Shown here piece after piece: positions 1 to 58,998 of a stretch of 64,000 bases of DNA. The translations under genes and the position numbers were made by a program. Location of the stretch: IMG/VR virus record IMGVR_UViG_3300017767_000005; one strand, written 5' to 3'. A model generated the notes under the pieces. The model ran no database searches. It was not told the DNA's origin and saw nothing but the letters and a program-made list of their open reading frames with translations. Each line of letters begins with the position of its first letter. The first letter of the stretch is position 1. The stretch is from a virus.

Positions 1-20
1 CTTGCGCCTCATTTTCACAA

Positions 21-56
21 CCCCATCGGCTCAATCGAGTCGGTGGGGTTTTTTTT
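21..56 (+). terminator. Intrinsic-type hairpin terminator
   Basis: CCCCATCGGCTC-AATC-GAGTCGGTGGGG stem (G-U pairs allowed) followed by T8. Confidence 0.7.
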
Positions 57-65
57 ATTTTGAAT

Positions 66-210
66 CCAGGAACCTTTTACCGGAAAAGTAAATCATAAAA
101 AGATATCCAGGAAATCTAAGACCAGGTTTTTTTTACCGAAAAAATAAGTCGTAAAAAATATCAGAAAGAAAAAGACCAGGATTTTGTTTTACCGAAAAAA
201 TAATTCCAGG
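66..210 (+). repeat. CCAGG-cored direct repeats in the left terminal non-coding region
   Basis: CCAGG at 66, 107, 122, 176, 206; AGACCAGG-T-rich-ACCGAAAAAATAA repeated at about 119-147 and 173-203. Confidence 0.8.
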
Positions 211-219
211 TCTAAATAA

Positions 220-262
220 AAAATAGTCGCGAAATGCCTAAACCGGAAGTATTATATACCCC
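220..262 (+). promoter_or_regulatory. Early promoter 1: upstream TAGTCGCG element plus TATA box
   Basis: AAAATAGTCGCGAAA (220-234) and ATTATATACCCC (251-262); same architecture at 1849 and 15436. Confidence 0.75.
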
Positions 263-320
263 CTAGACTATGGATATATATGGCGGGGTAAGAGCCGCCG
301 AAAATAGGAGGATAAAAACT

Positions 321-503
321 ATGACAGAAATAATAACTTGTGAGTGCTGTGGCACTTGGAATTGGCGGAAGATAGGCGAGGGTAATAATTACCTTCGTTC
401 TGAACAGGAAGCCGATAGATTGAATGCGAAACCAAAGGATGCGTTTTACTGCGCGTACTGTTGGATTAAAAACGACATATGGATTGAGGTTGTACCGGAG
501 TGA
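321..503 (+). CDS. Small zinc-finger protein
   Basis: AGGAGG SD before ATG 321; CECC...CAYC motifs. Confidence 0.7.
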   Translation: MTEIITCECCGTWNWRKIGEGNNYLRSEQEADRLNAKPKDAFYCAYCWIKNDIWIEVVPE

Positions 504-508
504 AAACT

Positions 509-727
509 ATGGCAAAGAAAATGAGCCTTGATGATTTCCTACTTACTGTTAAGAGAAAAGTAATGGATGGGGGCGTAATGTGTATCGCGGCAGTTGTCGA
601 AACTGAATGCGGCAGATATGTCAAACACCAAGTTACTTTTACCGACATTGTATTTAGGTTCACACATGACAACTCCGAAAATCCTGGTCTTGGAGATTTC
701 AGAAAAATACCTTTGGGGGAAATGTAA
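509..727 (+). CDS. Hypothetical early protein
   Basis: ORF coupled to neighbours. Confidence 0.55.
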   Translation: MAKKMSLDDFLLTVKRKVMDGGVMCIAAVVETECGRYVKHQVTFTDIVFRFTHDNSENPGLGDFRKIPLGEM

Positions 728-728
728 G

Positions 729-911
729 ATGGTAGGTTATTATGGAAACTTCAAATGTGGTCGATGCGGAAAAATTAGTTATCGGCATAATTCCGAAAAA
801 TGTAAATGCCACTATGAAAAGAAGGCTTCGGAGAGCAACAGAACCTATTCAAAAAGATTAACCCAATTATTAGATTCCCACAGAAAAAGGAGGGAAGAAA
901 ATGCTGAATGA
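729..911 (+). CDS. Small Cys-rich protein
   Basis: CGRCG and CKCH motifs; start inferred at ATG 729. Confidence 0.55.
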   Translation: MVGYYGNFKCGRCGKISYRHNSEKCKCHYEKKASESNRTYSKRLTQLLDSHRKRREENAE

Positions 912-1152
912 ACAAAAAATAGAATTAGCAAAAAAGTATGCAGAAAATGAAGAACGAAACGCGCACACGGAAAATGTGTTACTTTTAGCGGAAAACTTCG
1001 GGACTACGGTTCAGATAAAATCCGTTAAAAATATCTTGAAGTTAGTTAGATTGCGTGGATATTTGAATGGCGGTAGTGAACATAGTTACCTTACATTAAT
1101 CCACAATCAATACTTCGATAAAATCCGCGCTGAATACTTAGAGGTGCGCTGA
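901..1152 (+). CDS. Hypothetical early protein
   Basis: GAGGGA SD; 83-aa ORF in tightly packed operon. Confidence 0.65.
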   Translation: MLNEQKIELAKKYAENEERNAHTENVLLLAENFGTTVQIKSVKNILKLVRLRGYLNGGSEHSYLTLIHNQYFDKIRAEYLEVR

Positions 1153-1323
1153 ATGAGTTTAGAAAACGCTTTCGTAAAGTCTTTCTCATTCAGTATGATG
1201 CTAGACATGCAGGGATTCAAAACTTGGATTCACACAGACGACCATATTATCAACGACTTAGTTTCAACCGTAAAAGTAAATGGTGAAGGTATCTTGCCTT
1301 TGGTGGTGATTGGTGTTGAGTAA
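1153..1323 (+). CDS. Hypothetical early protein (56 aa; not in ORF track)
   Basis: GAGGTG SD; ATG directly after the previous stop. Confidence 0.55.
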   Translation: MSLENAFVKSFSFSMMLDMQGFKTWIHTDDHIINDLVSTVKVNGEGILPLVVIGVE

Positions 1324-1582
1324 AAAACTAAACAGGTTGGAAACAGGTTGGATAAAGATTATCCTTGAAAGTAACTTAGACCTATCTTCGTTCACGGCTA
1401 CCCAAGCCATGCACAAAATCAAAGAAACTCCTACGCGTGATGGGCCAAGAAAATCATATCCACAACATTCAATGAAAATGGATATTGTTTTGAAAAAGCA
1501 TTCGCGATTCACATATGTTAGATTAACCAATAAACTAGGTAACATTTGGACTTACATAGGAGATGAGAAAAATGCCGATTAG
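1310..1582 (+). CDS. Hypothetical protein, possible winged helix
   Basis: ORF track; start uncertain. Confidence 0.5.
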   Translation: MVLSKKLNRLETGWIKIILESNLDLSSFTATQAMHKIKETPTRDGPRKSYPQHSMKMDIVLKKHSRFTYVRLTNKLGNIWTYIGDEKNAD

Positions 1583-1745
1583 AGATAACAGAACATACAG
1601 AAGAAAATACGGCGACTTAATTATAACCGTAAAAGTAAATGGTAAATCCCAAAGATATTTGATTAGTCATTTAGGTTTCGGAAAACAATACACTACGGGG
1701 ATTTACGGAATGTCAAAAACTATTTCGGGGTTGAAAATACTATGA
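1572..1745 (+). CDS. Hypothetical early protein
   Basis: AGGAGA SD; basic 57-aa ORF. Confidence 0.5.
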   Translation: MPIRDNRTYRRKYGDLIITVKVNGKSQRYLISHLGFGKQYTTGIYGMSKTISGLKIL

Positions 1746-1848
1746 GAAAAATAATCGTAAAAATAAAACCCACAGATAGAAAGGGCAAGCCAGGAAACCA
1801 GGATAGTTTTCCGAGAGAAGTAAAGTTTGCAAGGAGGGGAGAAAACTG

Positions 1849-1891
1849 AAAATAGTCGCGAAACCCCAAAACCACAACATTTATATACCCC
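1849..1891 (+). promoter_or_regulatory. Early promoter 2: upstream TAGTCGCG element plus TATA box
   Basis: AAAATAGTCGCGAAA (1849-1863) and TTTATATACCCC (1880-1891); spacing identical to promoter 1. Confidence 0.75.
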
Positions 1892-2032
1892 TAATCATAT
1901 TTCATATTAGAGCCGGAGGGCGAAGCCAATGAGCAAGAAAAATACAACAGCAAAAAACAACACAGAAAACAAACCAAAGAAAAACTTCGGTAATTTCGTA
2001 TTTACGATTACCGACATCAAGGAGGACAGAAA

Positions 2033-2332
2033 ATGCAATTCGGAAAATTAGTTACTATTGACGGAAAACTATTTGTGGATTCTGATTTACCGACTCACGA
2101 TAAACCTATCGAGGTTTTGAATGGTTTTGAATCAATGAGAGGGGAGTATTGGTTTGTCACAGAAAAACCAAAGGTCGGCTCGCGTGACCCACGCTCTTTC
2201 GGATTCTTGCAACACACCTACGGTTGGGAGTGGGGCTACATAGATGAGGCTTGGCTAAAATTAGCAGGTAAGCATCATGTGTGGTCTATCAAAAAAATAG
2301 ATTTACCATATGCAGGTAAAAGAGGTGATTAA
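2033..2332 (+). CDS. Hypothetical protein, resembles DUF2958-like family
   Basis: AAGGAGG SD; YWFVTE...FG...WEWGYI pattern. Confidence 0.5.
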   Translation: MQFGKLVTIDGKLFVDSDLPTHDKPIEVLNGFESMRGEYWFVTEKPKVGSRDPRSFGFLQHTYGWEWGYIDEAWLKLAGKHHVWSIKKIDLPYAGKRGD

Positions 2333-2822
2333 AATTAGCAGAAAAGTAAACATAGATGATTTGCACATATTCAAAGTTAATTGGAGTGATGCAGAATTAG
2401 AGAGATTGATTGAAGATAAAATTGTGACAAAAGTAAAATGGGGTAATGGGTTCCGTTACTCAACTTTTGATTACGCGATTCATTGGCATGAATATGAAAT
2501 ACCCGATGAAGAGTTACGACCATTTTTCAAGAGAGAAGATGGTGGTTATGATAGCATGATTATCAGAATTAAAATGCAATGGGAAAAAGCAAATAGAGAA
2601 TCCCGTAACAAAAACTTGCTACGGTGGCGGTTCAAAAGATTGCAGAACCTTGCTTTTGAGAAAAAAATACTTGCTAGAAAAGGTCGGCCATGTCGTGAAT
2701 GTAAATCAACAAATACTATTTTAAGCGGAGATGTAAACTTTGCAGATGGTGGTTATCATTCTTCAACAACTCTTCAGTGTTTAGATTGTGAACACTTTGA
2801 TGTTACGGGGGCGAGATTTTGA
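2310..2822 (+). CDS. Hypothetical protein with C-terminal zinc ribbon
   Basis: CREC...CLDC; start may be GTG 2325. Confidence 0.6.
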   Translation: MQVKEVIKISRKVNIDDLHIFKVNWSDAELERLIEDKIVTKVKWGNGFRYSTFDYAIHWHEYEIPDEELRPFFKREDGGYDSMIIRIKMQWEKANRESRNKNLLRWRFKRLQNLAFEKKILARKGRPCRECKSTNTILSGDVNFADGGYHSSTTLQCLDCEHFDVTGARF

Positions 2823-2958
2823 GCAACGCATTCACGGCTGATAGAGAGAGAAACATTACTCCTAAAAGAAAGGTTATTCCGTATTTCAGATTTAGAGATG
2901 TTTGGAATACAAAAACTTCGCAAGAAAATATGGTGAAGAAAAAAGAGAAGGTGAAACA

Positions 2959-4452
2959 ATGAACAAACCAATAGTAACAATAACAATTAGTAATCTTAAA
3001 TTACCGGGAGATATAGAGTATATTCGCGATTTGATAAAAGAAGCCGGATTCACAATAGACACGCTTTCCGTGTGGGAAGGTGATGACTAAATGGCACGAT
3101 GCAAAGATGGATGCAAGCCGGAAAACCATTTTCCCGTTTACAAATCAGCAAGACAAAAATATCCTACTCTTACAGGATGCAGAAAGTGTTTTTACATTGT
3201 CCATAAAACAACGCAGGTGATTTCATGATGGAATGGGGAAACTATCAAGGGACGGGAAGATTCCTGGATATTGATGATAAAAATTGGAAGTGTGGAGATT
3301 GTGGAAACATTTGTCCAAAAACAACTGACTTAGGCATGAATCGCCATCGTTGTGAGAAATGTGGAAATAAGAGGGGCGACACGACAAGGGGTTGGATTGA
3401 GGAAAAAATAGTCACAAAAAATGACGATACCAACATTTATATACTACCGAGAAGAGGACATATTACTGAGAGGGAAAACAATGAGTGACGAAGCACAAGA
3501 CCAATATGACATAGCCAAAGGTGCATTAGAATTAGCATCAATGGCTTTGCTTAAACTAAAGAATAGATGCGGAGTAATACCGGATGATATTTACTATGTC
3601 GAGTTTGATACTCCAATAGTTTTAATGGAAAAGAAACTTGAAGAATTAATGGGTGAGAATGATGAGTGATAGAAATTATTATTGGCTAGTACCATGCAAA
3701 AAACCGGAATGGGGTTGGGCCAAGTGGTTTATTTTTAGCGAAGAACAAATGCGGGATATGGATATAGAAGATTTCCATGTCGTAGCAGACCCTACGGGTA
3801 TTTCAAAAGATTTGGTGGTGGTTTCTGATGGCAGTTGATTTAACACCAACCAAAGCAGGTTATACTTATATGCTAAAAGTAGTTTCTAAAAACTCGACAA
3901 ATGCCAAAGACCGAGCATGGGCTAAGGCTGAATTACAAAAAATACAAAATGGAAAAAATGTACCAAGGAGGACTGAATGATGGATAAAGAATTAATGGAT
4001 AGAATTATGCAAAAACTAAGTGAGAGAGATAAGGTAGTAGGTTGTGGTGGCGAAGCCGAAGTCAATTTCTTGACAGGTGCTATGACGATGTTTCAATTGC
4101 TAAATCCCGAATCAGTAAAAGATGGTTCTTGGTGTCCTCCGTCGTGGGTGATACCTATTCTAAGTGGCGATAGTCCTTTGAAGATATGGAGGGGTAAACA
4201 ATGAGTTACGATGATATTAAAAATAATCTATGGGATAGATGGGAAGGCATTCACAAAGATGTCGGTTATGAAATCGCGATAGATTCAAGCGTTGAAGGTG
4301 ACAATTGTTTGAAAGTTACTTTTTACGAAAAAGACATGGATGGAGAGTTTTATGTTTCAGTGGATATTACAGACGACGGTTTTGAATCGAGTCTGCATGA
4401 TGCACATAAAAAAGCCATAAAAGTAATTGATGAAATCATGGAGGGTTACTGA
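2959..4452 (+). CDS. Run of seven small coupled early ORFs (2959-3090, 3091-3228, 3225-3488, 3481-3669, 3662-3838, 3977-4204, 4201-4452)
   Basis: GGTGA/GGAGG SDs and ATGA-type overlaps; two are Cys-rich; functions unknown. Confidence 0.55.
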
Positions 4453-4453
4453 T

Positions 4454-5128
4454 ATGAAGAATTGGTTGTCAGAAGAGATATTTAACGAAGAGGCAGGGCA
4501 TTGTGATTATTGGGATTGGCAATTTGAGTCAATCAATTTCCAATGGCTACCGAAGCGTGGAGTTTGGCATATCAGATATTATGATTATGCGGGTATTTTT
4601 AACGGAAAAATAGAAGGTCGAGAAATGACCCGATGCGTATGTAATGACGGTCAATTTACACACTACATGGTCGAAGGCACTAAGGACAACTTGAAGAGAA
4701 TACCACTTCGATGTCCTACATGCGAGCCGGAACCTACACCCGTACCGGAACCTACAATGTGTTTTGTTGAAGATGATAGAAGTTATCGTAATTCTCATGC
4801 AGGTTCGGGTTTGATGATTCACGATTCAAATTGTAATCATATTCAATGGAAACATCACGGAATGTATTTTATGGAGAAAAGTATTCCTATCACAAAAGAA
4901 GGTATGGAAACTATCGCTTGGAATATGCTTGCAGACATAGCGCGTGAAATTGATTCAAACTACGATGTTCCCAAAGGCCATGTCCCTTGCACTGAAGATG
5001 AGTGGAGAGATTGCTTTAACCTTGAAAGAGCGAAGCGAAATGCAACCATTGATGTGATGCACTACGCTACTTGCGATTGCATGAAAGAGCATCGGGAAAG
5101 AATAGAAAAAGAATTGGGGGAAAACTAA
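4454..5128 (+). CDS. Hypothetical protein with Cys/His motifs
   Basis: 224-aa ORF; CPTC and PEPTPVPEPT linker. Confidence 0.65.
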   Translation: MKNWLSEEIFNEEAGHCDYWDWQFESINFQWLPKRGVWHIRYYDYAGIFNGKIEGREMTRCVCNDGQFTHYMVEGTKDNLKRIPLRCPTCEPEPTPVPEPTMCFVEDDRSYRNSHAGSGLMIHDSNCNHIQWKHHGMYFMEKSIPITKEGMETIAWNMLADIAREIDSNYDVPKGHVPCTEDEWRDCFNLERAKRNATIDVMHYATCDCMKEHRERIEKELGEN

Positions 5129-5255
5129 TGAAGAAAAAAGAAATGATAGAGATAGCAAGGAATTGTCTTGAGGCGATTGAGGCCGGAGGCGATAGAGAAA
5201 CCGGCACGATGATGTTAATAAAAGAAAATCTAAAGTTAATGTTGGGGGAAAACTA

Positions 5256-5672
5256 ATGTCAGAAGAAAATGTGGAAGATTTGGAAAAAACAAAAATGCAG
5301 TATTTAGGTCGCACTAGAGATAACAAAAAAGTAAGTGTAAAGATATTCGGCAATATGAATGCCACTTCAACCTTTGGAAATGTCAAGGCATTCAAACACT
5401 TGGTTATCGGACAGATATTCTTTGTCCCTAAAAGTAAAGATGATACAGGTTGGTACTTAGGCCACATCGAATACGGTGATGTCGAAGATTGCGACCCGAA
5501 GTATATTGTCGCTGATGAAATCGCTAAGAAACAACGGACACAGAAAACCGTAGCAAAGAAGTTTGACGGCATAGGTAGTTTAACCCTAAATGAAATCGTT
5601 GAAAAATCTTGGCAACTCAATCAATCACAGAAAGCACAACTTATAGGGCTAATTGTATCGAGGCTATCATAA
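5256..5672 (+). CDS. Hypothetical protein
   Basis: GGGGG SD and TAATG coupling; preceded by small ORF 5128-5256. Confidence 0.65.
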   Translation: MSEENVEDLEKTKMQYLGRTRDNKKVSVKIFGNMNATSTFGNVKAFKHLVIGQIFFVPKSKDDTGWYLGHIEYGDVEDCDPKYIVADEIAKKQRTQKTVAKKFDGIGSLTLNEIVEKSWQLNQSQKAQLIGLIVSRLS

Positions 5673-6568
5673 TGATAAATGTATTATCTTGTTTCGATGG
5701 TATTTCGTGCGGTCAAGTCGCATTGGAAAAATCCGGTATAGAATACGAAAACTACTATGCCTCCGAGATAGATAAATCAGCGATAGAAGTAACTCAACAT
5801 AATTATCCTAAAACTATTCAGTTAGGAGATGTTGAGGATTGGGAGTCTTGGAATCTTGAGAATGTCGATTTGGTTATGGGCGGTAGTCCATGCCAAGGTT
5901 TCAGTGTGGTTGGTAAACGATTAAACTTTGACGACCCAAGAAGTAAACTATTCTTTACTTTTGCAGATATTCTAAAACATTACAAACCTAAGTATTGGCT
6001 TTATGAAAATGTGATTATGGATGATGATATACGCGATGCGATTTCAGAAATCTTAGGAACGCAACCCGTTATGATTCAGTCGGCTGATGTATCAGCACAA
6101 TTACGGAAAAGGTATTATTGGTCTAACATTCCATTTTGTTCTCCGAGAAAACTAATAGTGAACATAGAGGATATTTTAGAAGATAAAGAATACAAATATC
6201 CAGCATCAATTATTGGTCGCAGGTTAGACGAAGATGGTTACAGAAAAGACCATGACGAATCAATACCACGCGTTCAGTATCTATCAGTTAGGAAAGGAAA
6301 GAAGGCAGGTTGCCTAACGACTGTAACCAAAGATTCAGTAGTCAGCAAATTACCACACGGTCAATACCATGACGCTTACAATACTCATAAAAATAGTTGG
6401 CGACATTGGACTCCGCTAGAAAGAGAAAGACTACAAACTCTCCCCGATGGTTATACAGAAATCATGGGTAAATACAATAGAGAGAAAGGTATTGGTAACG
6501 GATGGACTGTTGATGTTATCGTTCACATATTCAAGTCGATTGAAGGAGAAAACACGGTTTGGTTGTGA
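5672..6568 (+). CDS. C5-cytosine DNA methyltransferase
   Basis: Motif I CFDGIS, motif II EID, catalytic GSPCQGFS, ENV, QLRKRYYW, GNGW. Confidence 0.93.
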   Translation: MINVLSCFDGISCGQVALEKSGIEYENYYASEIDKSAIEVTQHNYPKTIQLGDVEDWESWNLENVDLVMGGSPCQGFSVVGKRLNFDDPRSKLFFTFADILKHYKPKYWLYENVIMDDDIRDAISEILGTQPVMIQSADVSAQLRKRYYWSNIPFCSPRKLIVNIEDILEDKEYKYPASIIGRRLDEDGYRKDHDESIPRVQYLSVRKGKKAGCLTTVTKDSVVSKLPHGQYHDAYNTHKNSWRHWTPLERERLQTLPDGYTEIMGKYNREKGIGNGWTVDVIVHIFKSIEGENTVWL

Positions 6569-6606
6569 TTACCAGCATTTATATACTATCGAAGGTAGGG
6601 TTAGAT

Positions 6607-7401
6607 ATGGCGGAGAGAGAGAAGTCAGATAAGATGAATTGCCCGAATGGTAGTTGTCGTGTCGTCACCTTTGAAAGAGGTGGATGGAAAGACGGTCTAT
6701 GGGAGTATGAAGATTCAAGCGCATGGTCGGCTATGCAGAATAACCGTTGTCCGGGATGCGGAGAAGTAGGTGAAGATTTATGAGCGAAGATTTACGGAAA
6801 AAGAAACCTACAAAGACTAATTTGTTGAGAGCATACCAATCACTTACTATGGAGATTGATGAACACTTTCGCCGCAACGATACCTTGACATCAGAAGAAT
6901 GGGATAGGTTAGGTAATGAAGCATTTGCACACATTCAATTTATGAAAAAGGGGGAAAACTAATGAGCGAAAGAGCAGAAGAAGCAAGAGAGGGTTTTAGA
7001 ACAATTTTGGAAAACATAAACGATGAGTTAGAGGGCGGAGATGTCGTATTAGACTTTGAAGCGTTTCCAGCATATCATATATTCTTAGATGTTCTAAACA
7101 CACTTGTAGGTCAAAAACTTAGAGATATGAAGGCTACCGATGAATTAATGGAAAAACTAAACAAGATTAACAGACTCAGTGAAGGTGACGGTTTAGTATT
7201 CAATATGGGGGATGAGAAATGACTAAGGAAATGACAAAAATACAAGTTTCAATAGGATGCCCAAGCGGTCAAACCGATTGGGGTAATGGTTATATTATCG
7301 TTAAAGTTTCAAAAGGATTTGAGAGTGAGTTTGTTGAGGCAATCAAAGACCATGCACGATTCTTTGCTAAGGAATATACTTTGGAGGATGATGCACAATG
7401 A
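6607..7401 (+). CDS. Four small coupled ORFs (6607-6783 Zn-finger, 6780-6962, 6962-7222, 7219-7401)
   Basis: ATGA/TAATG overlaps and SDs; CPNGSC...CPGC in the first. Confidence 0.55.
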
Positions 7402-8009
7402 ACATAGGTTCAGAAATTAGTTTTATGGGTCAAGTAATGAAGTGCTTTGACTTGGCGATTGATAACAAAGCGGCTGAGAGTAAAGTTAGCACACTATGGT
7501 ATCTTGGCGACCCATGTTATGTTGTCGCTGATGAAAAGTGGGATTTGTTTTGTCAGAAACTTTGGGCTGATGAAGCAAAAGCCAATGCGAAAAATAACGG
7601 TCACATGGATTCTATCATTGAATGGGAAGGCGAAAGACTTGAGGTTTGGTCTAACGGTGGTGACGGTTCGTGGCACTTTGACTTTAGAGGCAAGGATGCC
7701 GAAAAAACACCATTGAACGGAAACGATGCGGAGTTTTGTGTCGATGCGGGTATCTTCTGTATTATGCCCGTAAAAATATGTGATGTCAAAAACATTGACG
7801 GATTGAAAAGTCTTGGTATGGTTTTCAAACATGAACCGGAATTGTATGTCGAGGACAATGTTGTGTATATCAACGATGTTCACGATGAATCAGTGGGAGA
7901 ATGTTATAATTGCGACGAAATGATACAAAAAGATTCTGAAGAGTATTGTGAAAGAGGGGAATGTGTCGGTTGTTGGCACTGTTTTGATTGTGAGTGTGAA
8001 GAAGAATGA
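7398..8009 (+). CDS. Hypothetical viral protein with acidic Cys-rich tail
   Basis: YLGDPCY...GGDG...VDAG pattern that I recall from phage hypotheticals; C-terminal CxxC repeats. Confidence 0.65.
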   Translation: MNIGSEISFMGQVMKCFDLAIDNKAAESKVSTLWYLGDPCYVVADEKWDLFCQKLWADEAKANAKNNGHMDSIIEWEGERLEVWSNGGDGSWHFDFRGKDAEKTPLNGNDAEFCVDAGIFCIMPVKICDVKNIDGLKSLGMVFKHEPELYVEDNVVYINDVHDESVGECYNCDEMIQKDSEEYCERGECVGCWHCFDCECEEE

Positions 8010-8296
8010 CCTACTATTATTTCACATGCAAGTTTTGTAAATGCACTTTCAAAGGTCGCGGACATATGCTTAGTCAAGGCGGTTACTGTTGTGATGGTTG
8101 TAATAAGGAAAAAGTATTACCGGCACGAATGAAAGGTGAACACCTATGAATCATAAATTACCCAAAAAAGAAAGTTTGGATGGGGTGCTTTCACGCAATC
8201 CCGACCCACTACCACACAATGCAGGTATGCCAAGAGGCGCGCCTCTTGGTTACAGTAGCATGGAAGAATACTACGAAGCACAAAGGAGATGTAGGG

Positions 8297-8782
8297 ATGA
8301 GGCCAGCCGATAGAACATACTTGTATAACATAGACTACATAACAGGTAATGTGTTGTGGTATGCAGGTCTAGGGACTCCGTTCAAATTGTCCTATGATAG
8401 TCGAGAGGCAGTTAGTATTCCTAACTCACAGATAGATAACATACGCAAAGGTTTGATTAAGTTTACCGATAATAGTAATTGGTATAGAATCACAGGAGAT
8501 AGCAAAGTAGTAACAAGACCGTTTGCATGTCAACAGTGTGGTACATCTTGGACTCATGCTTGTGAAGCATACGCTAAAGGACATACAACTGATATGGGAG
8601 TGTTGTCTGTTACAAGCGATTTTAGAAATCCCGAAAAAACAATTCTGTTTGGTCAATCAATCAGACATGCAAAAACTTGCAAAGTGTGTGGGGATTTGAT
8701 TTGTGGCGATTGTGGAATGCCCGAAAGAGGAAAGAATGCAGGGCGTTGTCGCGCTTGTAAGAAAAAATCGTGGGAACGATAA
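8297..8782 (+). CDS. Zinc-finger protein
   Basis: CQQC, CKVCG..CGDC, CRAC; start inferred at ATG 8297. Confidence 0.65.
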   Translation: MRPADRTYLYNIDYITGNVLWYAGLGTPFKLSYDSREAVSIPNSQIDNIRKGLIKFTDNSNWYRITGDSKVVTRPFACQQCGTSWTHACEAYAKGHTTDMGVLSVTSDFRNPEKTILFGQSIRHAKTCKVCGDLICGDCGMPERGKNAGRCRACKKKSWER

Positions 8783-8808
8783 TACAACACCGACAGGGTG
8801 ATAAAGGT

Positions 8809-8958
8809 ATGAGAATAGATATTGTATGTCCGAAGTGTGATGCTAGTCGCTTTGCCGTAAGGCATGAAGGAGGCCACTTGAAACTCATGTGTTGTCATTG
8901 TAATTATCATCTTAGGTTTATAGTTGGGGGAAAAGAAAATGGGAAGAGCAAAAATTAG
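8809..8958 (+). CDS. Zinc-ribbon microprotein
   Basis: CPKC...CCHC. Confidence 0.55.
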   Translation: MRIDIVCPKCDASRFAVRHEGGHLKLMCCHCNYHLRFIVGGKENGKSKN

Positions 8959-9238
8959 TCACATCAGATTGAGAAAGAGATTAGTGCAGATTCTAAAGTC
9001 GCACGACGGAGAGTTACCATCAGCGCAAGCATTGTATCGAATGGTAGTCGAATCCGGTATGTCACCGAATCTTGCAGGTTCGCACAATAGAATCGCGCAG
9101 ATATGTAGCATTACCAAAGGTATCGGTTCTTTAACCACTAAAATAAGAAGTGTTAGTGGTGATAGTTATACGGCAGATGTATATTACCTTGAAAGTGAAG
9201 ATGACTTCAAAGATTGGGTCGCTTCCAAAATGGGGTAA
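8939..9238 (+). CDS. Probable winged-helix DNA-binding protein
   Basis: Helix-helix-helix followed by beta wing pattern. Confidence 0.5.
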   Translation: MGRAKISHIRLRKRLVQILKSHDGELPSAQALYRMVVESGMSPNLAGSHNRIAQICSITKGIGSLTTKIRSVSGDSYTADVYYLESEDDFKDWVASKMG

Positions 9239-9242
9239 ATGA

Positions 9243-10094
9243 ATGCGATTGGGTTCTTGGGTTTTCGTAAAGACCAAGGACTTGTCTATCGACGCATACT
9301 ACCCTTACACTAAGAAAGGGAAGAACAAAGTCTTTGAGCCATACATCGTTTTTTCCAGCCCATCAGATACTTTGTATCTTTACGGAAAAAGAAACCTTTG
9401 GTCTTTACTCGATGCTCTATTTCCAAATAACCCTCTTCCCCGAAATCCGGTAAATGCAGACCTAAAAGATGCAATACAGGGTAAAGTAATCTTAGAAGAT
9501 TTGTTACAAGACCCCGATGCTTGGGAGGACTTGAGATTGCAAGTCAGACAGGGTGAACGATATGACCCATTTGGCCGTTCTAAGGTATCTTGTAGGCCAC
9601 CAAACGATGCAGATGTAACTTTCATCATGTCGGCTTCTTCGGCTTCGTCAGAAGTGGATATAACGCCTAATTTGATATTGCTTGAAAATCAATTCAAATC
9701 GTCATACTGTATGCCATTTACTATTACCACTAAAACAAACATGAAAACAATTCCAGCATTGTTTATTCCGTTGGATTCAGCACAGAATTACAAAGTAGTA
9801 GTCACTGATGAAATCGGTGGGGAACACCTTATCTTTTCCATAATAGAAAACGCAGGTTGTAATTTCAGACCGAAGGTTGCTTCTCGATTCTCAGCAGACC
9901 AAATTACAAAAATCCAAAAAGAAATCAAAGAGCGTATCATCATGCTTGATTCTATCCTAAAAATAAATTACGAGTTTCCGATTATGCGACCACTTGACGC
10001 AGGTATGAAGTGGTATGAAATGGACTTCTTAGAACACAAACGCTTCACATCTTGTCCGATGTATTCACTTTGGCGGATAAACTACGCTAATTAA
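9243..10094 (+). CDS. Hypothetical protein (283 aa)
   Basis: Long ORF ending the early operon; no motif recognised. Confidence 0.75.
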   Translation: MRLGSWVFVKTKDLSIDAYYPYTKKGKNKVFEPYIVFSSPSDTLYLYGKRNLWSLLDALFPNNPLPRNPVNADLKDAIQGKVILEDLLQDPDAWEDLRLQVRQGERYDPFGRSKVSCRPPNDADVTFIMSASSASSEVDITPNLILLENQFKSSYCMPFTITTKTNMKTIPALFIPLDSAQNYKVVVTDEIGGEHLIFSIIENAGCNFRPKVASRFSADQITKIQKEIKERIIMLDSILKINYEFPIMRPLDAGMKWYEMDFLEHKRFTSCPMYSLWRINYAN

Positions 10095-10112
10095 TTATAT
10101 TTTTCACCCTGC

Positions 10113-10299
10113 TACTGAAAGAATTATTCGGCTTTCAGTCCATCGGTTTTTTACAATTCTTGAATTAATTCATAGAGGGGGGGAGGGATTGTTCTATTAC
10201 TTACTTATCTTATTATTACTTCTTTTTCTTACATGCCTATGAAACAATTCAAGAATTAATCTAACTTGCTCGCAGTATCTCGATTTAATTCTTTCAGTA
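10113..10299. other. Candidate replication origin (nested inverted repeats)
   Basis: 14-bp perfect IR (10113-10126/10286-10299) and 19/21 IR (10155-10175/10237-10257) share centre 10206; G-run and pyrimidine-rich core; upstream of the helicase operon. Confidence 0.6.
10114..10152 (+). terminator. Hairpin plus T-run ending the early operon
   Basis: ACTGAAAG/CTTTCAGT stem, then CCATCGGTTTTTT. Confidence 0.4.
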
Positions 10300-10355
10300 A
10301 GATACCTAATTATTGAAACATTATGCTTATATCCTATATCGTGTAAGATAGTAAC

Positions 10356-10736
10356 ATGGGCGAACCGATGAACCGTGGTATGATGATAGCGAGAGTATGG
10401 AATATGCTCAACGATGAAGGGGCGATGAGGTCGGTTGATATTTACACAAAGTATTGCGACTCCTATCTAAAGTACGGAGTTTACACCGCTTCAGCATTTT
10501 CTCAAATCTTGAGAAGGTCGGGATGCTTCATTCCCGTAGGCGAAGAAACCATTGAGCGAACCTATGTCATGGGTAACAAAAACACAGTTAGGGTTACGGT
10601 TTGGGATTCTAAACCAATAGAGGCTCTAATCAAACCTTACATCACAGAAGGTTGTCACCCACTTAGGAAATTATCTAAGATGCCAGCATTCGTTAGAGAA
10701 GCCGTGAAAAATTGGGGTGAGCAGAATGTCGCATGA
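10356..10736 (+). CDS. Probable winged-helix protein, first gene of the replication operon
   Basis: wHTH-like helix pattern; TATA 29 nt upstream of ATG. Confidence 0.6.
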   Translation: MGEPMNRGMMIARVWNMLNDEGAMRSVDIYTKYCDSYLKYGVYTASAFSQILRRSGCFIPVGEETIERTYVMGNKNTVRVTVWDSKPIEALIKPYITEGCHPLRKLSKMPAFVREAVKNWGEQNVA

Positions 10737-11475
10737 ACGGTTTGAATCTCTTGACATTTTTTGGAAAGGCGACAAGAATAGATTTAGCCCTAAAATATGT
10801 TACATCTATTTACAGGGCGAATATGGTTTCATCCCATACATAGCCTCATCAGCAGTTTGTGGTGGTAAAAATACGATAGCGGAAATAATGTCACCGAATA
10901 TGTCCGTCGAGCCATTCAACCGTATGCCTAACATGGTGAAATCATCGTGGGGTATCACGCAAGTATCGAGCAATACTTGTTTCTTAAATCTATCTTCTTT
11001 CCCATCGGTCAAGATGATGCCGGATGCAAACCCCGACCTTTGGAGAAAGACATACCCAATGTTGATGGACTTACTTTTGTGGCTAAAACAAAGTGGTTGT
11101 AAACAAATCAATTTCATAACTTCGATGAATACTTCTTCGGCAGACCAAGATAGTGATTTGATGGTGTATGACCTATACAACGACATCAGGCCGGAAGTCG
11201 ATTTACTTACTACACTACCAGCGTGGTTCATCCCTTCGACATGGCATATGATGGGAGGAAGGGCTTGTGTCATTTGTGCTATCCAAGACGAAGGACAATA
11301 CATAGACCAAGATGCTTACGGGTTATTAGAAGAGTATTTGGTCGCTCTTGGGCTACCGTATCACAATGTTCATAAAGAGCGTATTACACAGGTCTTACTA
11401 TCGGTGCGAGAGAGAGTCGAACAATTGGGTGACACATTTGACTTGTTTGATGACGAAGGGGGAGATTGGGCTTGA
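10726..11475 (+). CDS. Possible PAC2/proteasome-assembly-chaperone-like protein
   Basis: QGEYGFIPYIAS, LLLWLKQSGCKQINFITS and DAYGLLEEYLVALGL match the PAC2 layout as I recall it. Confidence 0.45.
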   Translation: MSHERFESLDIFWKGDKNRFSPKICYIYLQGEYGFIPYIASSAVCGGKNTIAEIMSPNMSVEPFNRMPNMVKSSWGITQVSSNTCFLNLSSFPSVKMMPDANPDLWRKTYPMLMDLLLWLKQSGCKQINFITSMNTSSADQDSDLMVYDLYNDIRPEVDLLTTLPAWFIPSTWHMMGGRACVICAIQDEGQYIDQDAYGLLEEYLVALGLPYHNVHKERITQVLLSVRERVEQLGDTFDLFDDEGGDWA

Positions 11476-12809
11476 ATGAAATTATCACAAAACTAATTCG
11501 GTTTACCAAAGACAATCATTATGTCGATGTTGAAGATAAAGTCCCATTGTTTGCTTGTAGCATTGGCGCACATATTTTTAACGCAATCAACAAATGTAGT
11601 CGTTGCGATTTCGACCCTGCTCATCCACAGAACAATGATTTCAATATCGCCAATTGTCCGTTGCGACATCACAATCCGCCAATTTATACTCCAATGTCCC
11701 AAGTGGGTGATACAAGAATCCACATACTGATGCGTGGTGCAAAAGGTTCCGGTAAAAGTATGTTGATTAATATGTTCCTCAATGAAGGTACGGGACTTCT
11801 CTATACCGACGGTGCATTTTTTGATTCGGTAGGTTTCCGAACCATGATGGGGCCAAACTCGGTCACAGAAGCCGGTATGTTCGGTTCGGTTGATGAAGAA
11901 GGTGAAATCGTTGGTCGTCCATTGGCTAGAGAAATGTGCGGCGGTTTCTTAGGATTTGAAGAATCATCCAGCCTAACTGATGCTAACAAAAAAGACCACA
12001 GTATCGACATGAAAAATCAATTACTTACTTCTCTCGATAATGGAAGAGTGCAGAAGATGATGCGTAATGGTTGGGTGAATTACAATACCCGTTATACTTT
12101 GTGGGGTGGAACACAACCGGCGCGATTGGAAATGGAGTCCGGTCTTGACCGAAGGTTCTTCATCATCGACATAGAAATGTCACCGGAAAAGGAGGCACTG
12201 TTCAAGAAGGCACAACACTTACAATCCAACATGACAAGAGGCGACAGACTTGCTCTCGCTGATGAAGCAATTTACATTCGCAATTGGTTTAACACAAGAA
12301 TGCTCGATGCTATTCTTAATCCTCCGTCGGGAGTTATTTTTACGGATGAATTAGGTGCGTGGCTTGACAGGGATGATATTCGTTCTTACGAGTCTGATTT
12401 GTTTAGGCGTTTGGCTATCGGGTACGCTATGCTCAAGGATAAGTGGGTAGGTGGAGAAGTCCTAAGAATAGAATTGGACGACCCACTACTCGGACTTCTT
12501 GAATCGTCATTGATGATGAGAAGGTCTGTAATGGATTCAGATGTTCGCATGATTAAGGATGCGTTTTGGATGCAGGACATCAAGAAGTCAACTTTACTGA
12601 AAGAAATAAGTCGCATCATTACTAAAGGTGATTATGTTGCCGCTAAACGATGGATTGATGAAAGTCTAACTCAACAGCCTTGGTTTGCAGAATACACTCC
12701 GAAGGCTGATGGTCGTCGTGGTCGCAAGGGTGTCATGTGTCGTATCGGCCCATTGACTGACCCAAGACAAGTAGCGCAGAAATGGGGTAAGGGGGAAATA
12801 GAACAATGA
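11466..12809 (+). CDS. mcm: MCM-like AAA+ replicative helicase
   Basis: Walker A GAKGSGKS, Walker B GFEE, TEAGMFG, QP and LDRRF arginine finger. Confidence 0.75.
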   Translation: MGLNEIITKLIRFTKDNHYVDVEDKVPLFACSIGAHIFNAINKCSRCDFDPAHPQNNDFNIANCPLRHHNPPIYTPMSQVGDTRIHILMRGAKGSGKSMLINMFLNEGTGLLYTDGAFFDSVGFRTMMGPNSVTEAGMFGSVDEEGEIVGRPLAREMCGGFLGFEESSSLTDANKKDHSIDMKNQLLTSLDNGRVQKMMRNGWVNYNTRYTLWGGTQPARLEMESGLDRRFFIIDIEMSPEKEALFKKAQHLQSNMTRGDRLALADEAIYIRNWFNTRMLDAILNPPSGVIFTDELGAWLDRDDIRSYESDLFRRLAIGYAMLKDKWVGGEVLRIELDDPLLGLLESSLMMRRSVMDSDVRMIKDAFWMQDIKKSTLLKEISRIITKGDYVAAKRWIDESLTQQPWFAEYTPKADGRRGRKGVMCRIGPLTDPRQVAQKWGKGEIEQ

Positions 12810-15021: not shown

Positions 15022-15438
15022 ATGGCGCATAACATGAGCGCAACGAATAGAAGAGTTAGGAGAGCAATTTTGGAAATACTATACGATAGTGGCCCTATGA
15101 CTAAAGAGGAAATGGCTTCTGCTTTAGCGGCGAGAAAAGGTGTTGCTCATGTTCCTTCTCCGCATAGTTTGTCGGCACTACTTTGTAAGTCGCACAGTAT
15201 CATACAGTTAGGAAAAAAGAAAGTTGAAAACTCTCTAGGTGTAAGTACCAAACATAATGTGTATGACATTGACCGCGATGTGATTTTGTGTAAGGATGAA
15301 TTGATTCATATTCGTGAACCATCCACAATGACTCCAAAGGAAAAAGTAAAGGCGGCTAAGTGTCTATCATGTGGTCGAACAAGAATCAAACCCGAAGGAT
15401 TTGATGAATGTTTGACTTGTGTTAGAATCACAGAATAG
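15022..15438 (+). CDS. Winged-helix plus zinc-ribbon protein
   Basis: AILEILYDSGPMTKEEM HTH start; CLSC...CLTC. Confidence 0.7.
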   Translation: MAHNMSATNRRVRRAILEILYDSGPMTKEEMASALAARKGVAHVPSPHSLSALLCKSHSIIQLGKKKVENSLGVSTKHNVYDIDRDVILCKDELIHIREPSTMTPKEKVKAAKCLSCGRTRIKPEGFDECLTCVRITE

Positions 15439-26726: not shown

Positions 26727-28949
26727 ATGATAGTGGATGCAGTAGGCCGGAACAATGTCGTAGTTAGACACAGGGATGCAGACGGTAAGCGTGTCGAAAC
26801 CACGATTACTGACTTTTATCCTTATTGTTATGTTGAGGATGAATCGGCTGAGTATGTTGAAGGTGCTAAGGAACAGGGTTACAAGGGAGTGTTTGGCGAA
26901 TCGCTGACTAAGGTAACTGTTAGGTCGTCTGATAGTATTAGACGAATCAAGGAGATTGGCCCAACATGGGAAGCGAATATCCCGTATGTCAACCAAGTTT
27001 TAGCGGCTAAAGTAAAGCGTGGTGATGAGCCATTTGCACCGTATGAACACCGAGTTTGGTATCTCGATGGTGAATGGAAGATAAGCACAGGCGAAATCAC
27101 TATGCTTTCAGTCTATGATAGTTTTACGGAAAATCTATACTCATGGGTTATGATAGGTGGTATCGGTGCAGGTAAATACAAGTCTTTGTTGGATGCCAAC
27201 AATAACTCGTATGAATACGATACTCCGGTTCTTGCGTTTGAAACCGAGCGTGAATTGTTACAACACTTTGTTGGATTTATGCGTAAACAAGACCCCGACA
27301 TTATCACCGGATGGTATGTCGCAGGTGCGGATATTAAGCAAATCGTCAAGCGTTGTCAAGCGGTTGGGGTCAAGGCGCAGTTAATGTCGCCTTACAACCG
27401 TTTGCGGTATGACTATGGCGATTGGTCGCAACCTATTGTTGGGAGAAATGTAATTGATTTGATGCAAGCATTCCCTAAGTTATGGGAATTGAAGAATGGT
27501 AAGTTAGGCGGTTACAAATTAGACAATGTAGCAAAGGAATGTTTAGGGGAAAGTAAAGTCGAGTTGCCCGATGGTCACGACACATATTATTCCGACCCTG
27601 TTCTGTATCTCGATTACAACAGACAAGATGTTGCTTTACTCCCAAAACTAAATGCTCTTGTCAACGCGATTGAATACTTCATAGCGGTTCAACACATCGT
27701 TCAGTGCGATATTGCTACTACTCCTTTTGTGACAAAAGTATTTACTTGTTTGACATTGTGTGACCCCGAAGTGGATTTCCAAATCCCATCCAAACCTATA
27801 TTTGACAAGGTGAAATACGATGCGGCTATTGTTCTCGATGCGCCACAGGGAATACACCGCAACATAGGTATCTTTGATGTTAAAGCCATGTATCATAGTA
27901 ATGTGAACCTTCACAACATATCATGGGACACACTTGACGCAAATGGCAAGGATTGTGGTAACGGTACTTGTTTCACCCAAGATAAACAGGGTTTGCTTGG
28001 TCGTCAAATGGATAACATGACAAAATTGCGTGACAAATACAAGGCTTTGCTCAAGGGTGCTAAGACCGATGAGGAAAGGGTGCGTTATGACGCATTACAG
28101 TACGCTACGAAGTCTTTAGTGGCTTCGATGTATGGTTGTGCCGGTGACGCAAAGTATGGCCTCTATCACCCCGATATAGCGTCTGCTATTACTCATGCTT
28201 CAAGGGAAACATTGTTGAAGTTAAAGTCGGTTGCTGAATCTCATGGTTTTCCCGTAGTGTACGGACATACTGATTCTGTTATGTGCGAGATACCTTCTGT
28301 CGAAAAGGGTCTTGCTGAATTGGATTCTATTAACGAACAAATGAGTCCTATTATCGTACAGTTTGAGAAGTGGTCGTCAACATTCCTTTTGATGGGTAAG
28401 AACCGATATTGTGGTCTTGTTGAATGGACTGATGGTGAACACCATGACCCGAAGCGATATGTCAAGGGAATTGAGTTGAAGCAATCTCGTATGCCCGAAA
28501 TAATGAAAGAATCAATGGGTAAAGTAATTGATGGTATTCTCAACAATACAGATTCGGTAAAAGTAACTGATGAATTGTGTGATTTGATAGACAGTATTGT
28601 TAGCGGTAAAATAGACCCGCTTGAATTGTGTATGAAGGGCAAACTAACTAACGATTTAGAGAAGTATAAGAGTATCAGTGGTGCGGCGGCTGGCGCGCAG
28701 TGGGCTAATCGTACATTAGGTAAGGGCTACCGCAAGGATGATTACTTCTTGTGTGCTATCGACCCAAAAGGTAACTATATTGCCTTCGACCACCCAAGCG
28801 AAATAGAGGGTATTACTGAAATCGGCTATCGCACTATGGTTGAGCGTTTTATTATCAGTAAAGTAAAGCCATACTACGAAGTCGCAAATTGGGATATGAC
28901 CGCACTTCTTATCTCTATGGATGGTAAGAAGAATACTATGTGGATTTAG
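26727..28949 (+). CDS. polB: Family B DNA polymerase
   Basis: Exo motifs (LDGE, DPDIITGW, YNRQD); FDVKAMYHS, K...SMYG, YGHTDS, KNRY. Confidence 0.95.
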   Translation: MIVDAVGRNNVVVRHRDADGKRVETTITDFYPYCYVEDESAEYVEGAKEQGYKGVFGESLTKVTVRSSDSIRRIKEIGPTWEANIPYVNQVLAAKVKRGDEPFAPYEHRVWYLDGEWKISTGEITMLSVYDSFTENLYSWVMIGGIGAGKYKSLLDANNNSYEYDTPVLAFETERELLQHFVGFMRKQDPDIITGWYVAGADIKQIVKRCQAVGVKAQLMSPYNRLRYDYGDWSQPIVGRNVIDLMQAFPKLWELKNGKLGGYKLDNVAKECLGESKVELPDGHDTYYSDPVLYLDYNRQDVALLPKLNALVNAIEYFIAVQHIVQCDIATTPFVTKVFTCLTLCDPEVDFQIPSKPIFDKVKYDAAIVLDAPQGIHRNIGIFDVKAMYHSNVNLHNISWDTLDANGKDCGNGTCFTQDKQGLLGRQMDNMTKLRDKYKALLKGAKTDEERVRYDALQYATKSLVASMYGCAGDAKYGLYHPDIASAITHASRETLLKLKSVAESHGFPVVYGHTDSVMCEIPSVEKGLAELDSINEQMSPIIVQFEKWSSTFLLMGKNRYCGLVEWTDGEHHDPKRYVKGIELKQSRMPEIMKESMGKVIDGILNNTDSVKVTDELCDLIDSIVSGKIDPLELCMKGKLTNDLEKYKSISGAAAGAQWANRTLGKGYRKDDYFLCAIDPKGNYIAFDHPSEIEGITEIGYRTMVERFIISKVKPYYEVANWDMTALLISMDGKKNTMWI

Positions 28950-55650: not shown

Positions 55651-55722
55651 TGGAGTCGGCAGGATTTGAACCTGCGGTATCATGGTTGCAAACCAAGCGT
55701 TTTTCCGCTAAACTACGACCCC
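55651..55722 (-). tRNA. tRNA-Ala(UGC), CCA not encoded
   Basis: Cloverleaf GGGGTCG/CGACTCC with G3:U70 and A73; D-arm GTTT/AAAC; loop TTTGCAA; T-loop TTCAAAT. Confidence 0.85.
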
Positions 55723-58472: not shown

Positions 58473-58501
58473 AAACTATCGACTACCGTTCTGTTTTTTA
58501 A

Positions 58502-58651
58502 CTATTTTTGAGTATTAAAGGCTGATTCCCACTCTTTTTTGCGTTTTTTTCTCAATTTTAATAATCCGAAACCGACAAAGAACCAAAACAGTAATTCAGC
58601 GATAACGAGAGCAACTCCAATTGTCGTGGCGTTATGTATCTCAAAGGCCAT
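58502..58651 (-). CDS. Single-TM microprotein with polybasic tail (not in ORF track)
   Basis: GAGGGG SD; IGVALVIAELLFWFFVGFGLL followed by KLRKKRKK. Confidence 0.6.
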   Translation of the reverse strand: MAFEIHNATTIGVALVIAELLFWFFVGFGLLKLRKKRKKEWESAFNTQK

Positions 58652-58998
58652 GTTTTTATCCCCTCTTGCATGATAACACGGTATGGTTACGGTTGATTCA
58701 TAATTATTGGGTCAATTTGCCCCAAAGTTAATTGTTTTGAAAAATTATACTTTTTCAGAAAAAATAAAACGCACTACTGCGAGCCATGTTGCTAATTCTT
58801 TTATTGTTTCATAGACAGAAAGTAAAAAGAAGTAATAAGAATAACAAGCGGGGCCAAGAATATACCTATGAAATAATTCAACAATTAACAAAAACCGCAA
58901 TACTGCGCCCAAAATAATTCTTTCAGTAGCAACATAATTTACAGAAATAATATGGTTGATAGACAAGCCTATAAAGGGGTGGCTCTTGGGATTAAATA

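Follow-up and report, generated by a model that had tools for sequence, protein, structure and literature searches.

Several observations on a 64,000-nucleotide stretch of viral DNA (IMG/VR record IMGVR_UViG_3300017767_000005, analyzed over its whole length and called the window throughout) point to a cis-acting module of ~150–190 bp, one copy of which, site 1, occupies positions 10113–10299 upstream of a helicase operon. With moderate confidence, we favor the hypothesis that this palindromic module is a replication origin for which the virus encodes no Orc1/Cdc6 initiator, possibly coupled to the adjacent promoters. A preliminary description of the window had placed an origin candidate with four dyad-symmetric sites here. 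A conserved, dyad-symmetric, multi-site element does lie beside the helicase operon, and from sequence comparison an origin appears to be its best explanation; the function is read from architecture and context, and promoter control is a live rival and the main one. Four sites proved too few, since further modules belong to the element, and a second copy at 58752–58930 had been missed.

Architecture, copies and conservation of the element

Two inverted repeats in site 1 are centered on the same position, 10206. A repeat finder pairs the arms 10113–10126 and 10286–10299 (14 nt, 100% complementary, 14/14) and the arms 10155–10175 and 10237–10257 (21 nt, 90% complementary, 19/21). An ungapped symmetry test across the 261-nt spacer that holds the element (10095–10355) also places the best axis at 10206.0, with 42/80 positions complementary; 300 dinucleotide shuffles of the spacer gave a mean of 33.1 and a maximum of 38, and none of the 300 reached 42 (z 4.8). 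The repeats described previously are thus upheld, as are the four occurrences of AAGAATT, at 10119(+), 10155(-), 10251(+) and 10287(-). These are 4 of the 27 matches in the 64 kb, gathered within 187 bp in which the genome-wide density predicts ~0.08. The four sites are not independent of one another, as each belongs to one of the two inverted repeats. The inner arms enclose a core, a candidate unwinding element, that begins with a run of G (10177–10183 plus 10185–10187) and continues as the pyrimidine- and AT-rich tract anticipated in the preliminary description, which is present at 10188–10236 and easily melted. The G-string, which had been offered as a hallmark, exists at 10177–10187 but is specific to this genome: close relatives carry GGTGTTTCAGTAAAGG in its place, so it is no hallmark of the element. 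The parts of site 1 and its promoter are as follows, with a strand where one applies.

10113–10126: outer left arm, TACTGAAAGAATTA; its counterpart in close relatives overlaps the stop codon of the OB-fold gene that precedes it
10130–10152: left M module, GGCTTTCAGTCCATCGGTTTTTT; here a direct repeat of the right M module, in other lineages its mirror image
10155–10175: inner left arm (AATTCTT...TTCATAG), from the repeat finder and relatives
10176–10236: core; G-run at 10177–10187, then an AT-rich tract, pyrimidine-rich on the plus strand; carries the conserved motif TTACTTCTTTTTCTTAC
10237–10257: inner right arm (CTATGAA...AAGAATT), from the repeat finder and relatives
10267–10286: right M module, TGCTCGCAGTATCTCGATTT; in the same orientation in nearly all relatives
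10286–10299: outer right arm, TAATTCTTTCAGTA, from the repeat finder and relatives
10326–10334, plus strand: TATA-like box, CTTATATCC, ~26 nt 5′ of the ATG at 10356; conserved as CCCTTATAACCC in close relatives

The preliminary description had proposed conservation of the symmetry in relatives as a check, and the element passes it. Among 122 helicase relatives in IMG/VR, 80 loci were examined. A first profile of the element matched nearly all loci, over its full length and on both strands. A broader profile matched 71 of the 80 upstream of the helicase operon, likewise full length and on both strands, ~1.0–1.6 kb before a helicase gene whose product is 60–79% identical to that of the window. 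At these 71 loci an open reading frame (ORF) of 250–330 aa always ends at the left edge of the element, and at nearly all of them the next ORF begins 46–68 nt past the right edge. The element is found between a gene for an OB-fold, SSB-like (single-stranded DNA-binding) protein, ORF9243 in the window, and, usually, a winged-helix gene, here ORF10356. Within the closest clade (76–79% identity for the helicase, ~48% for ORF9243 and ~30% for ORF10356) the gene order is the same and the spacer aligns over its entire length at a mean column identity of 68%, so that the noncoding element is better conserved than both of the proteins that flank it. Both inverted repeats are kept in this clade, with AATTCTTTCATTTCTTCATAGG and CCTATGAAACAAAAAAAGAATT as inner arms and outer arms of the AAAGAATAAA.CG type. 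The inner arms of the window have changed together (TTGAATT with AATTCAA), which accounts for their higher complementarity. Just past the right edge, several clades other than that of the window have a conserved motif, (G/T)ACGCTTGCG (loci L021, L022, L026, L034, L048, L066 and L077).

A motif scan of the window located the second copy, site 2, at 58752–58930. It lies in a 526-nt gap between the portal gene on the minus strand and ORF 58999–60426 on the plus strand, a junction that has divergent promoters and is the main strand switch of the genome. The modules below come from the same scan.

58766–58785: left M module of site 2
58793–58814 and 58866–58887: inner arms
58815–58865: core, AT-rich and purine-rich on the plus strand; reverse complement of the core motif of site 1
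58891–58910: right M module
58915–58928: outer right arm, TAATTCTTTCAGTA, identical to that of site 1
58968–58977, plus strand: TATA-like box, CCTATAAAGG, 31 nt before the ATG of ORF 58999–60426; a putative promoter

Ten full-length relatives, which together with the window make 11 genomes, carry copies at homologous places: two copies in six of the ten, three in another three, and site 2 only in the remaining one. A copy precedes the helicase operon in 9/10, with none detected there in G013, and all ten have a copy in the divergent gap between the portal gene and the homolog of ORF58999. The third copies, in G008, G010 and G011, lie in an ORF-poor early region with no abutting gene. Those of G010 (locus L108, 50307–50462) and G011 (locus L101, 68895–69049) contain an extra perfect 12-bp palindrome, TACAAATTTGTA, in both halves, and the ORF-poor DNA that surrounds these copies has more GCTACAAATTT repeats. 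The window also has a small ORF of ~50 aa (58499–58651, minus strand), with a hydrophobic stretch and a basic tail, between the portal gene and site 2; it is missing from close relatives, where the gap measures ~290 nt vs 526 nt.

The core motifs of sites 1 and 2 share AAAAAGAAGTAATAA, one of them as its reverse complement, whereas the orientation of the arms and of the flanking promoter is unchanged. The same opposite polarity of the core is seen in the close relatives examined for it (G001 and G002/G004). Opposed asymmetric cores would be expected of paired recombination sites, and this bears on the hypothesis that the element is some other cis-acting DNA site, namely a centromere-like partition site, a recombination or resolution site, or a packaging-related site, on which a symmetric protein complex assembles. 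Multiple symmetric protein sites would suit such a role, TubR (a plasmid partition protein) and RTP are among the fold matches of ORF10356, and site 2 is near the portal and terminase genes. We nevertheless regard this hypothesis as improbable. None of the copies was found to have a recombinase, partition ATPase or protelomerase beside it, cores of 30–60 bp far exceed the crossover regions of recombinases, and the copy at the helicase operon has no link to packaging. Furthermore, gene order across site 1 does not differ among the ten close relatives, which yield no inversion isomers. The specific idea that sites 1 and 2 are inversion sites was rejected, because gene order is the same in all close relatives.

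The stretch, or part of it, is present in 23 of the 24 sequencing runs listed; of these 23, 22 are viral metagenomes, and none is an RNA run. Reads were examined as assembled Logan contigs of the DNA runs. Contigs of four samples have no variants in 9796–11043 and no joints at the element. The contigs of one run break at the center of the palindrome, which is an assembly effect. In run X20, a single contig joins the right half of the core (at window position 10227) to another, purine-rich sequence (TAATAATAAGAATATAG...) similar to an inverted core; the join may come from the copy of a relative, a fold-back assembly artifact or a flipped core variant.

Modular build and duplex stability

Comparison of 38 diverse copies reveals a modular anatomy in which each half of the element contains three kinds of conserved site. 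These are the outer site (AAAGAAT/ATTCTTT), the M module of ~20 nt (consensus GGnGnGCAGTAcAGCGTTTTATT, with a near-palindromic GCAGTAC core) and the inner arm (consensus TAATTCTTTaATT..TTCAAaG and its complement). The core between the inner arms is AT-rich and 30–61 nt long, and often includes a short central palindrome of its own and often a G-run. Relative to the right M module, the left one is a mirror image in ~31 loci and a direct repeat in ~11–20, the window included, and in some lineages the M module and the core are flipped while the remaining modules are kept. Such flips break a single long hairpin and are harmless to an array of protein sites.

A structured noncoding RNA, either a long hairpin or the terminator of the upstream operon, has also to be weighed as the source of the symmetry. 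The 261-nt spacer does fold as one long hairpin (-52.1 kcal/mol, z -2.5), and G:U pairing between the G-run and the U-rich tract is possible in this genome. However, here and in other lineages the two M modules are direct repeats, and the long stem is thereby broken. In addition, an RNA stem under selection is expected to show many more G:U than A:C pairs on the transcribed strand. When the 38 elements are set against their own reverse complements, there are 2083 Watson-Crick, 140 G:T, 126 A:C and 604 other oppositions, and G:T at 140 vs A:C at 126 amounts to no wobble bias on either strand. A scan of 9900–10500 against Rfam, at E up to 1, gave no match. As for a terminator, the hairpin claimed previously exists after ORF9243 (10114–10139, an 8-bp stem with a 10-nt loop, -9.4 kcal/mol, followed by a T-run) but is weak (z -1.8; 11 of 200 shuffles fold equally well) and is not conserved in relatives. 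We consider an RNA function very improbable. Based on the conservation of the half-site sequences, which do not covary freely, the flipping of submodules, the lack of G:U bias and the lack of an Rfam match, we conclude that the element probably works as double-stranded DNA recognized by proteins.

The element also stands out in duplex stability, computed from nearest-neighbor energies in 100-bp windows. Its copies fall within the 0–2.4% least stable windows of their own genomes and provide the single least stable one in four of the 11 (G001, G005, G010 and G011). In the window, site 1 ranks at 0.03% and site 2 at 0.06%, and the least stable 40-bp window of the site 1 core is at the 0.00 percentile (as rounded) of all 40-bp windows.

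Proposed initiation, possible promoter control and the neighboring genes

Based on this architecture, we propose that sequence-specific proteins would occupy the symmetric array on either side of the center (outer AAAGAAT/ATTCTTT sites, M modules of the GCAGTA..GCGTTTT type and inner TTCATAG/CTATGAA sites), that the AT-rich, strand-asymmetric core between the inner arms would melt, and that the virus-encoded MCM-like helicase would be loaded onto the melted core, probably head to head. The adjacent winged-helix family, the N-terminal domain of the helicase itself and host Orc1/Cdc6 are candidates for the initiator. An origin-like, autonomous element is favored by the fact that the module is self-contained and tolerant of orientation, that a copy occurs in ORF-poor DNA, and that its highly unstable core is conserved. 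Its fixed place in the replication module, after the SSB-like gene and before an operon for a winged helix-turn-helix (wHTH) protein, a PAC2-like protein and the helicase, also supports an origin. The working criteria for origins of archaea and archaeal plasmids are an AT-rich region of low stability, flanking inverted repeats and proximity to replication genes, and replicons with several origins are known (PMC4010727, PMC6972569, PMC12141716). Judged by its sequence, the element combines these properties.

Several points weigh against an origin. At sites 1 and 2, every copy ends just ahead of a TATA-like box, and 46–73 nt separate it from a start codon; such placement is also expected of an upstream regulatory element. 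The cognate initiator is represented by candidates only, and the element occurs without an adjacent winged-helix gene in L047, L063, L067–L075, L080, G008 and G012, as well as at sites 2 and 3. The cumulative skew check that had been suggested is favorable in part, as in 7/10 relatives the minimum of cumulative GC or purine skew lies no more than ~200 nt from the gap that holds site 2; in the window, site 2 is the minimum only after exclusion of the early region at the left end. This minimum is not independent evidence, because skew follows gene orientation and site 2 is a point of divergence. At site 1 there is no change of sign, and skew falls from left to right, the opposite of what a simple bidirectional origin would produce.

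The placement upstream of promoters is one ground for thinking instead of a transcription-control hub, an activating or repressing array for a viral winged-helix regulator or a host factor that would time three abutted operons (replication, ORF58999–terminase and portal/structural) and would have no role in initiation. The nearly fixed distance to the start codon suits this hypothesis, as does the position of site 2, which takes up the interval between two divergent core promoters. The TATA-like box at 10326–10334 would be the promoter of the wHTH/PAC2-like/helicase operon and would produce a leaderless or near-leaderless mRNA. Moreover, a PadR/DUF3860-like winged-helix gene comes first after site 1 in 8/11 genomes, an arrangement typical of autoregulated repressors. 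Still, we consider it unlikely that transcription control is the whole function. The right edge of site 1 is ~27 nt upstream of the TATA-like box and the element reaches back to ~-240, so that its sites, at ~-55 to -240, are clear of the TATA box and start site where archaeal repressors usually act. A single module would have to coregulate replication, packaging and structural operons, and the third copies sit in ORF-poor DNA without an abutting gene. The lineages in which the winged-helix gene is not beside the element include several that keep every module. Finally, a conserved, extremely unstable, strand-asymmetric core of 30–60 bp has no obvious role in an operator. Origin and transcription-control roles may coexist: occupancy of the element may also tune the flanking operons, since each copy at sites 1 and 2 abuts core promoters. 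If the function were transcriptional instead, the element would be a regulatory node common to the operons for replication, packaging and structure.

A scan for sigma-70 promoters and intrinsic terminators returned nothing at the element, and such a scan is not applicable to archaeal promoters. The inner arms were considered separately as TATA-like boxes of late promoters (TTCATAAA); this idea was dropped, as the motif does not recur at promoters in the window.

The genes around site 1 that bear on the origin hypothesis are listed here.

9243–10094, plus strand: upstream neighbor ORF9243, 283 aa, with an OB-fold N-terminal domain (SSB-like) in the predicted model
10356–10736, plus strand: winged-helix protein ORF10356, of DUF3860/PadR-like topology; candidate binder of the element
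11466–12809, plus strand: divergent P-loop helicase; Walker A GAKGSGKS, FEEF, DRRFFIIDI and an N-terminal Cys/His cluster, all conserved

Searches of Pfam and PHROG with the ORFs neighboring the element found nothing except a PHROG family of unknown function for ORF 7398–8009. ORF9243 had previously been put forward as a novel initiator, and its features point elsewhere. The model (pLDDT 85.7) has an N-terminal OB fold like those of PriB, SSB, RPA and CST (Z 5–6.5) and a C-terminal alpha/beta domain. Its family forms two BLAST clusters, which hhalign joins at 97.5% probability, and in nearly all relatives one of its members terminates at or within the left edge of the element. Because of the OB fold and this constant position ahead of the element, ORF9243 is more likely to be a viral SSB than an initiator; "ssb" is listed among the genes of magroviruses. 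Comparison of the ORF9243 and helicase families with sequence profiles of the PDB gave chance-level matches only.

The second proposed initiator, ORF10356, had been called a wHTH protein, and its AF2 model, built with 30 homologs, is indeed a winged helix (pLDDT 89.6). The best fold match in the PDB is 2od5, a nucleic-acid-binding protein from a marine metagenome (E 2e-4), followed by PadR/LmrR regulators, RTP, TubR, TFIIE and the winged-helix domains of Orc/Cdc6, and Atlas groups ORF10356 with DUF3860 proteins of Thermoplasmatota. The modeled fold would fit a regulator or an initiator alike and does not tell between them. A paralog at 15022–15438 (profile E 1e-6), encoded in the replication module 4.3 kb further downstream, is another candidate for binding the element.

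ORF 10717–11475, located between the genes for the winged-helix protein and the helicase, resembles PAC2/PAC1 proteasome-assembly chaperones in a protein-language-model (Atlas) search only (0.91–0.92) and has no Pfam match. Most relatives have a homologous ORF of ~260–300 aa ahead of the helicase. The helicase itself (ORF 11466–12809) has no Pfam, PHROG or PDB sequence match, and we therefore call it MCM-like on the authority of the magrovirus literature, where profile-profile searches gave the corresponding protein its MCM label (PMC5434244).

An encoded Orc1/Cdc6 had been reported missing, and we likewise detect none: the 40 scanned ORFs include no Cdc6/ORC Pfam match, with the limit of strong divergence in these proteins, among which even the helicase escapes Pfam. 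The only AAA+ ORF that resembles a clamp loader is a true RFC small subunit (E 2e-26 vs archaeal RFC), and no recognizable WhiP or Cdt1 is among the encoded proteins. We tentatively hypothesize, as a possibility that we hold with considerable doubt, that the palindromes are Orc1/Cdc6-independent origins at which a viral factor, either the DUF3860/PadR-like winged-helix protein or the N-terminal domain of the helicase, nucleates head-to-head loading of the MCM-like helicase onto the melted core.

The replicon that carries the element is a magrovirus-like tailed archaeal virus. Pfam matches in the window include a family B DNA polymerase (PolB, 26727–28949), a Cpn60/TCP-1 chaperonin, an RFC-like AAA+ protein (the RFC small subunit above), AAA_24, PD-(D/E)XK and ERCC4 nucleases and two DNA methylases, and those on the opposite strand include a tape-measure protein, tail tube, portal and large terminase. 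Such a set of genes fits the magroviruses, tailed viruses that have been assigned to Marine Group II (Poseidoniales) archaea. When the helicase was aligned with genome contigs, the sole match was a virus-like contig binned in an Opitutales metagenome-assembled genome. This contig (L137; CAXXDF010000003.1, 61,226 bp) has a helicase of 65% identity and, in spite of the label Opitutales bacterium, is probably a magrovirus-like contig that was binned with a bacterium. A query of genome contigs with the chaperonin, made for host comparison, found no relative, and a blastn search of a phage database with 9243–12809 found no match. Among the relatives, the contig of locus L045 measures 72,008 bp and has direct terminal repeats. 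A tRNA-Ala (TGC) gene is located within the structural module of the window (55651–55722, minus strand). GC content, GC skew and AT skew all step at ~9–10 kb when 1–10000 of the window is compared with 10000–32000: GC rises from 0.37–0.40 to 0.42–0.45, and AT skew drops from 0.10–0.21 to ~0.03. From this step, site 1 appears to mark the border of two compositionally different gene blocks.

Magroviruses rank among the most abundant archaeal viruses of the surface ocean, and the magrovirus literature that we searched makes no mention of an origin or of palindromes. A defined, conserved cis-element would provide a concrete DNA substrate on which recruitment of an MCM-like helicase by a virus that encodes no Orc1/Cdc6 could be studied with recombinant proteins of uncultured viruses, and the profile of the element can serve as a sequence marker across the magrovirus group.

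Comparison with known systems

Palindromic sites upstream of the gene for a dimeric winged-helix protein are the mark of operators of the PadR/MarR type, and to this extent the element resembles them. Unlike these operators, it is ~10x longer, has an unstable core and is present at other loci. The operator of an autoregulator would overlap the core promoter and would remain linked to the gene of its regulator. The element instead ends ~27 nt short of the TATA-like box, and in several genomes the winged-helix gene is not adjacent to it.

Among archaeal replicons that encode MCM, the plasmids of the pT26-2 family have origins predicted from AT-rich, low-stability, repeat-rich DNA near the MCM/Rep gene together with GC-skew extrema; unlike the element, these predicted origins are single, belong to no common sequence family and have no nested palindrome (PMC6972569). 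Archaeal chromosomes offer another parallel. Origins of the oriC1 type have an ORB-DUE-ORB arrangement beside orc1/cdc6, and oriC3 of Sulfolobus uses the winged-helix initiator WhiP rather than Orc1/Cdc6 (PMC4010727, PMC12141716). Like archaeal chromosomal and plasmid origins, the element has an AT-rich unwinding region between inverted recognition elements, lies beside replication genes and occurs several times per replicon, and the conserved motif within its unwinding region is comparable to their ucm. An AT-rich, easily melted region and inverted repeats are thus shared with the ORB-DUE-ORB arrangement, whereas an adjacent orc1/cdc6 gene is not, none having been found in the 40 scanned ORFs. 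The element further differs in that each half consists of three or more different modules, vs one ORB, and in that the modules flip between lineages. In contrast to the replicons of archaeal origins, that of the element is a tailed-virus genome of 60–72 kb.

Palindromic viral origins of eukaryotes are similar in another way. In herpes simplex virus 1 (HSV-1), oriL and oriS have UL9 boxes around an AT center and are present in two to three copies per genome, and the core origin of SV40 has four GAGGC sites in head-to-head pairs. These origins lie between promoters of replication genes or other divergent promoters and follow a logic of head-to-head helicase loading, in which UL9 is an SF2 and large T an SF3 helicase. 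The element is likewise a palindrome with an AT-rich center and inverted pairs of sites, situated between promoters. The proteins are unrelated, the helicase here being MCM-like, and the likeness is one of architecture only. If the hypothesis of Orc1/Cdc6-independent origins is correct, an abundant group of ocean viruses would combine an origin logic like that of SV40 and HSV with archaeal-type replisome parts, at two to three origins per 60–72 kb genome.
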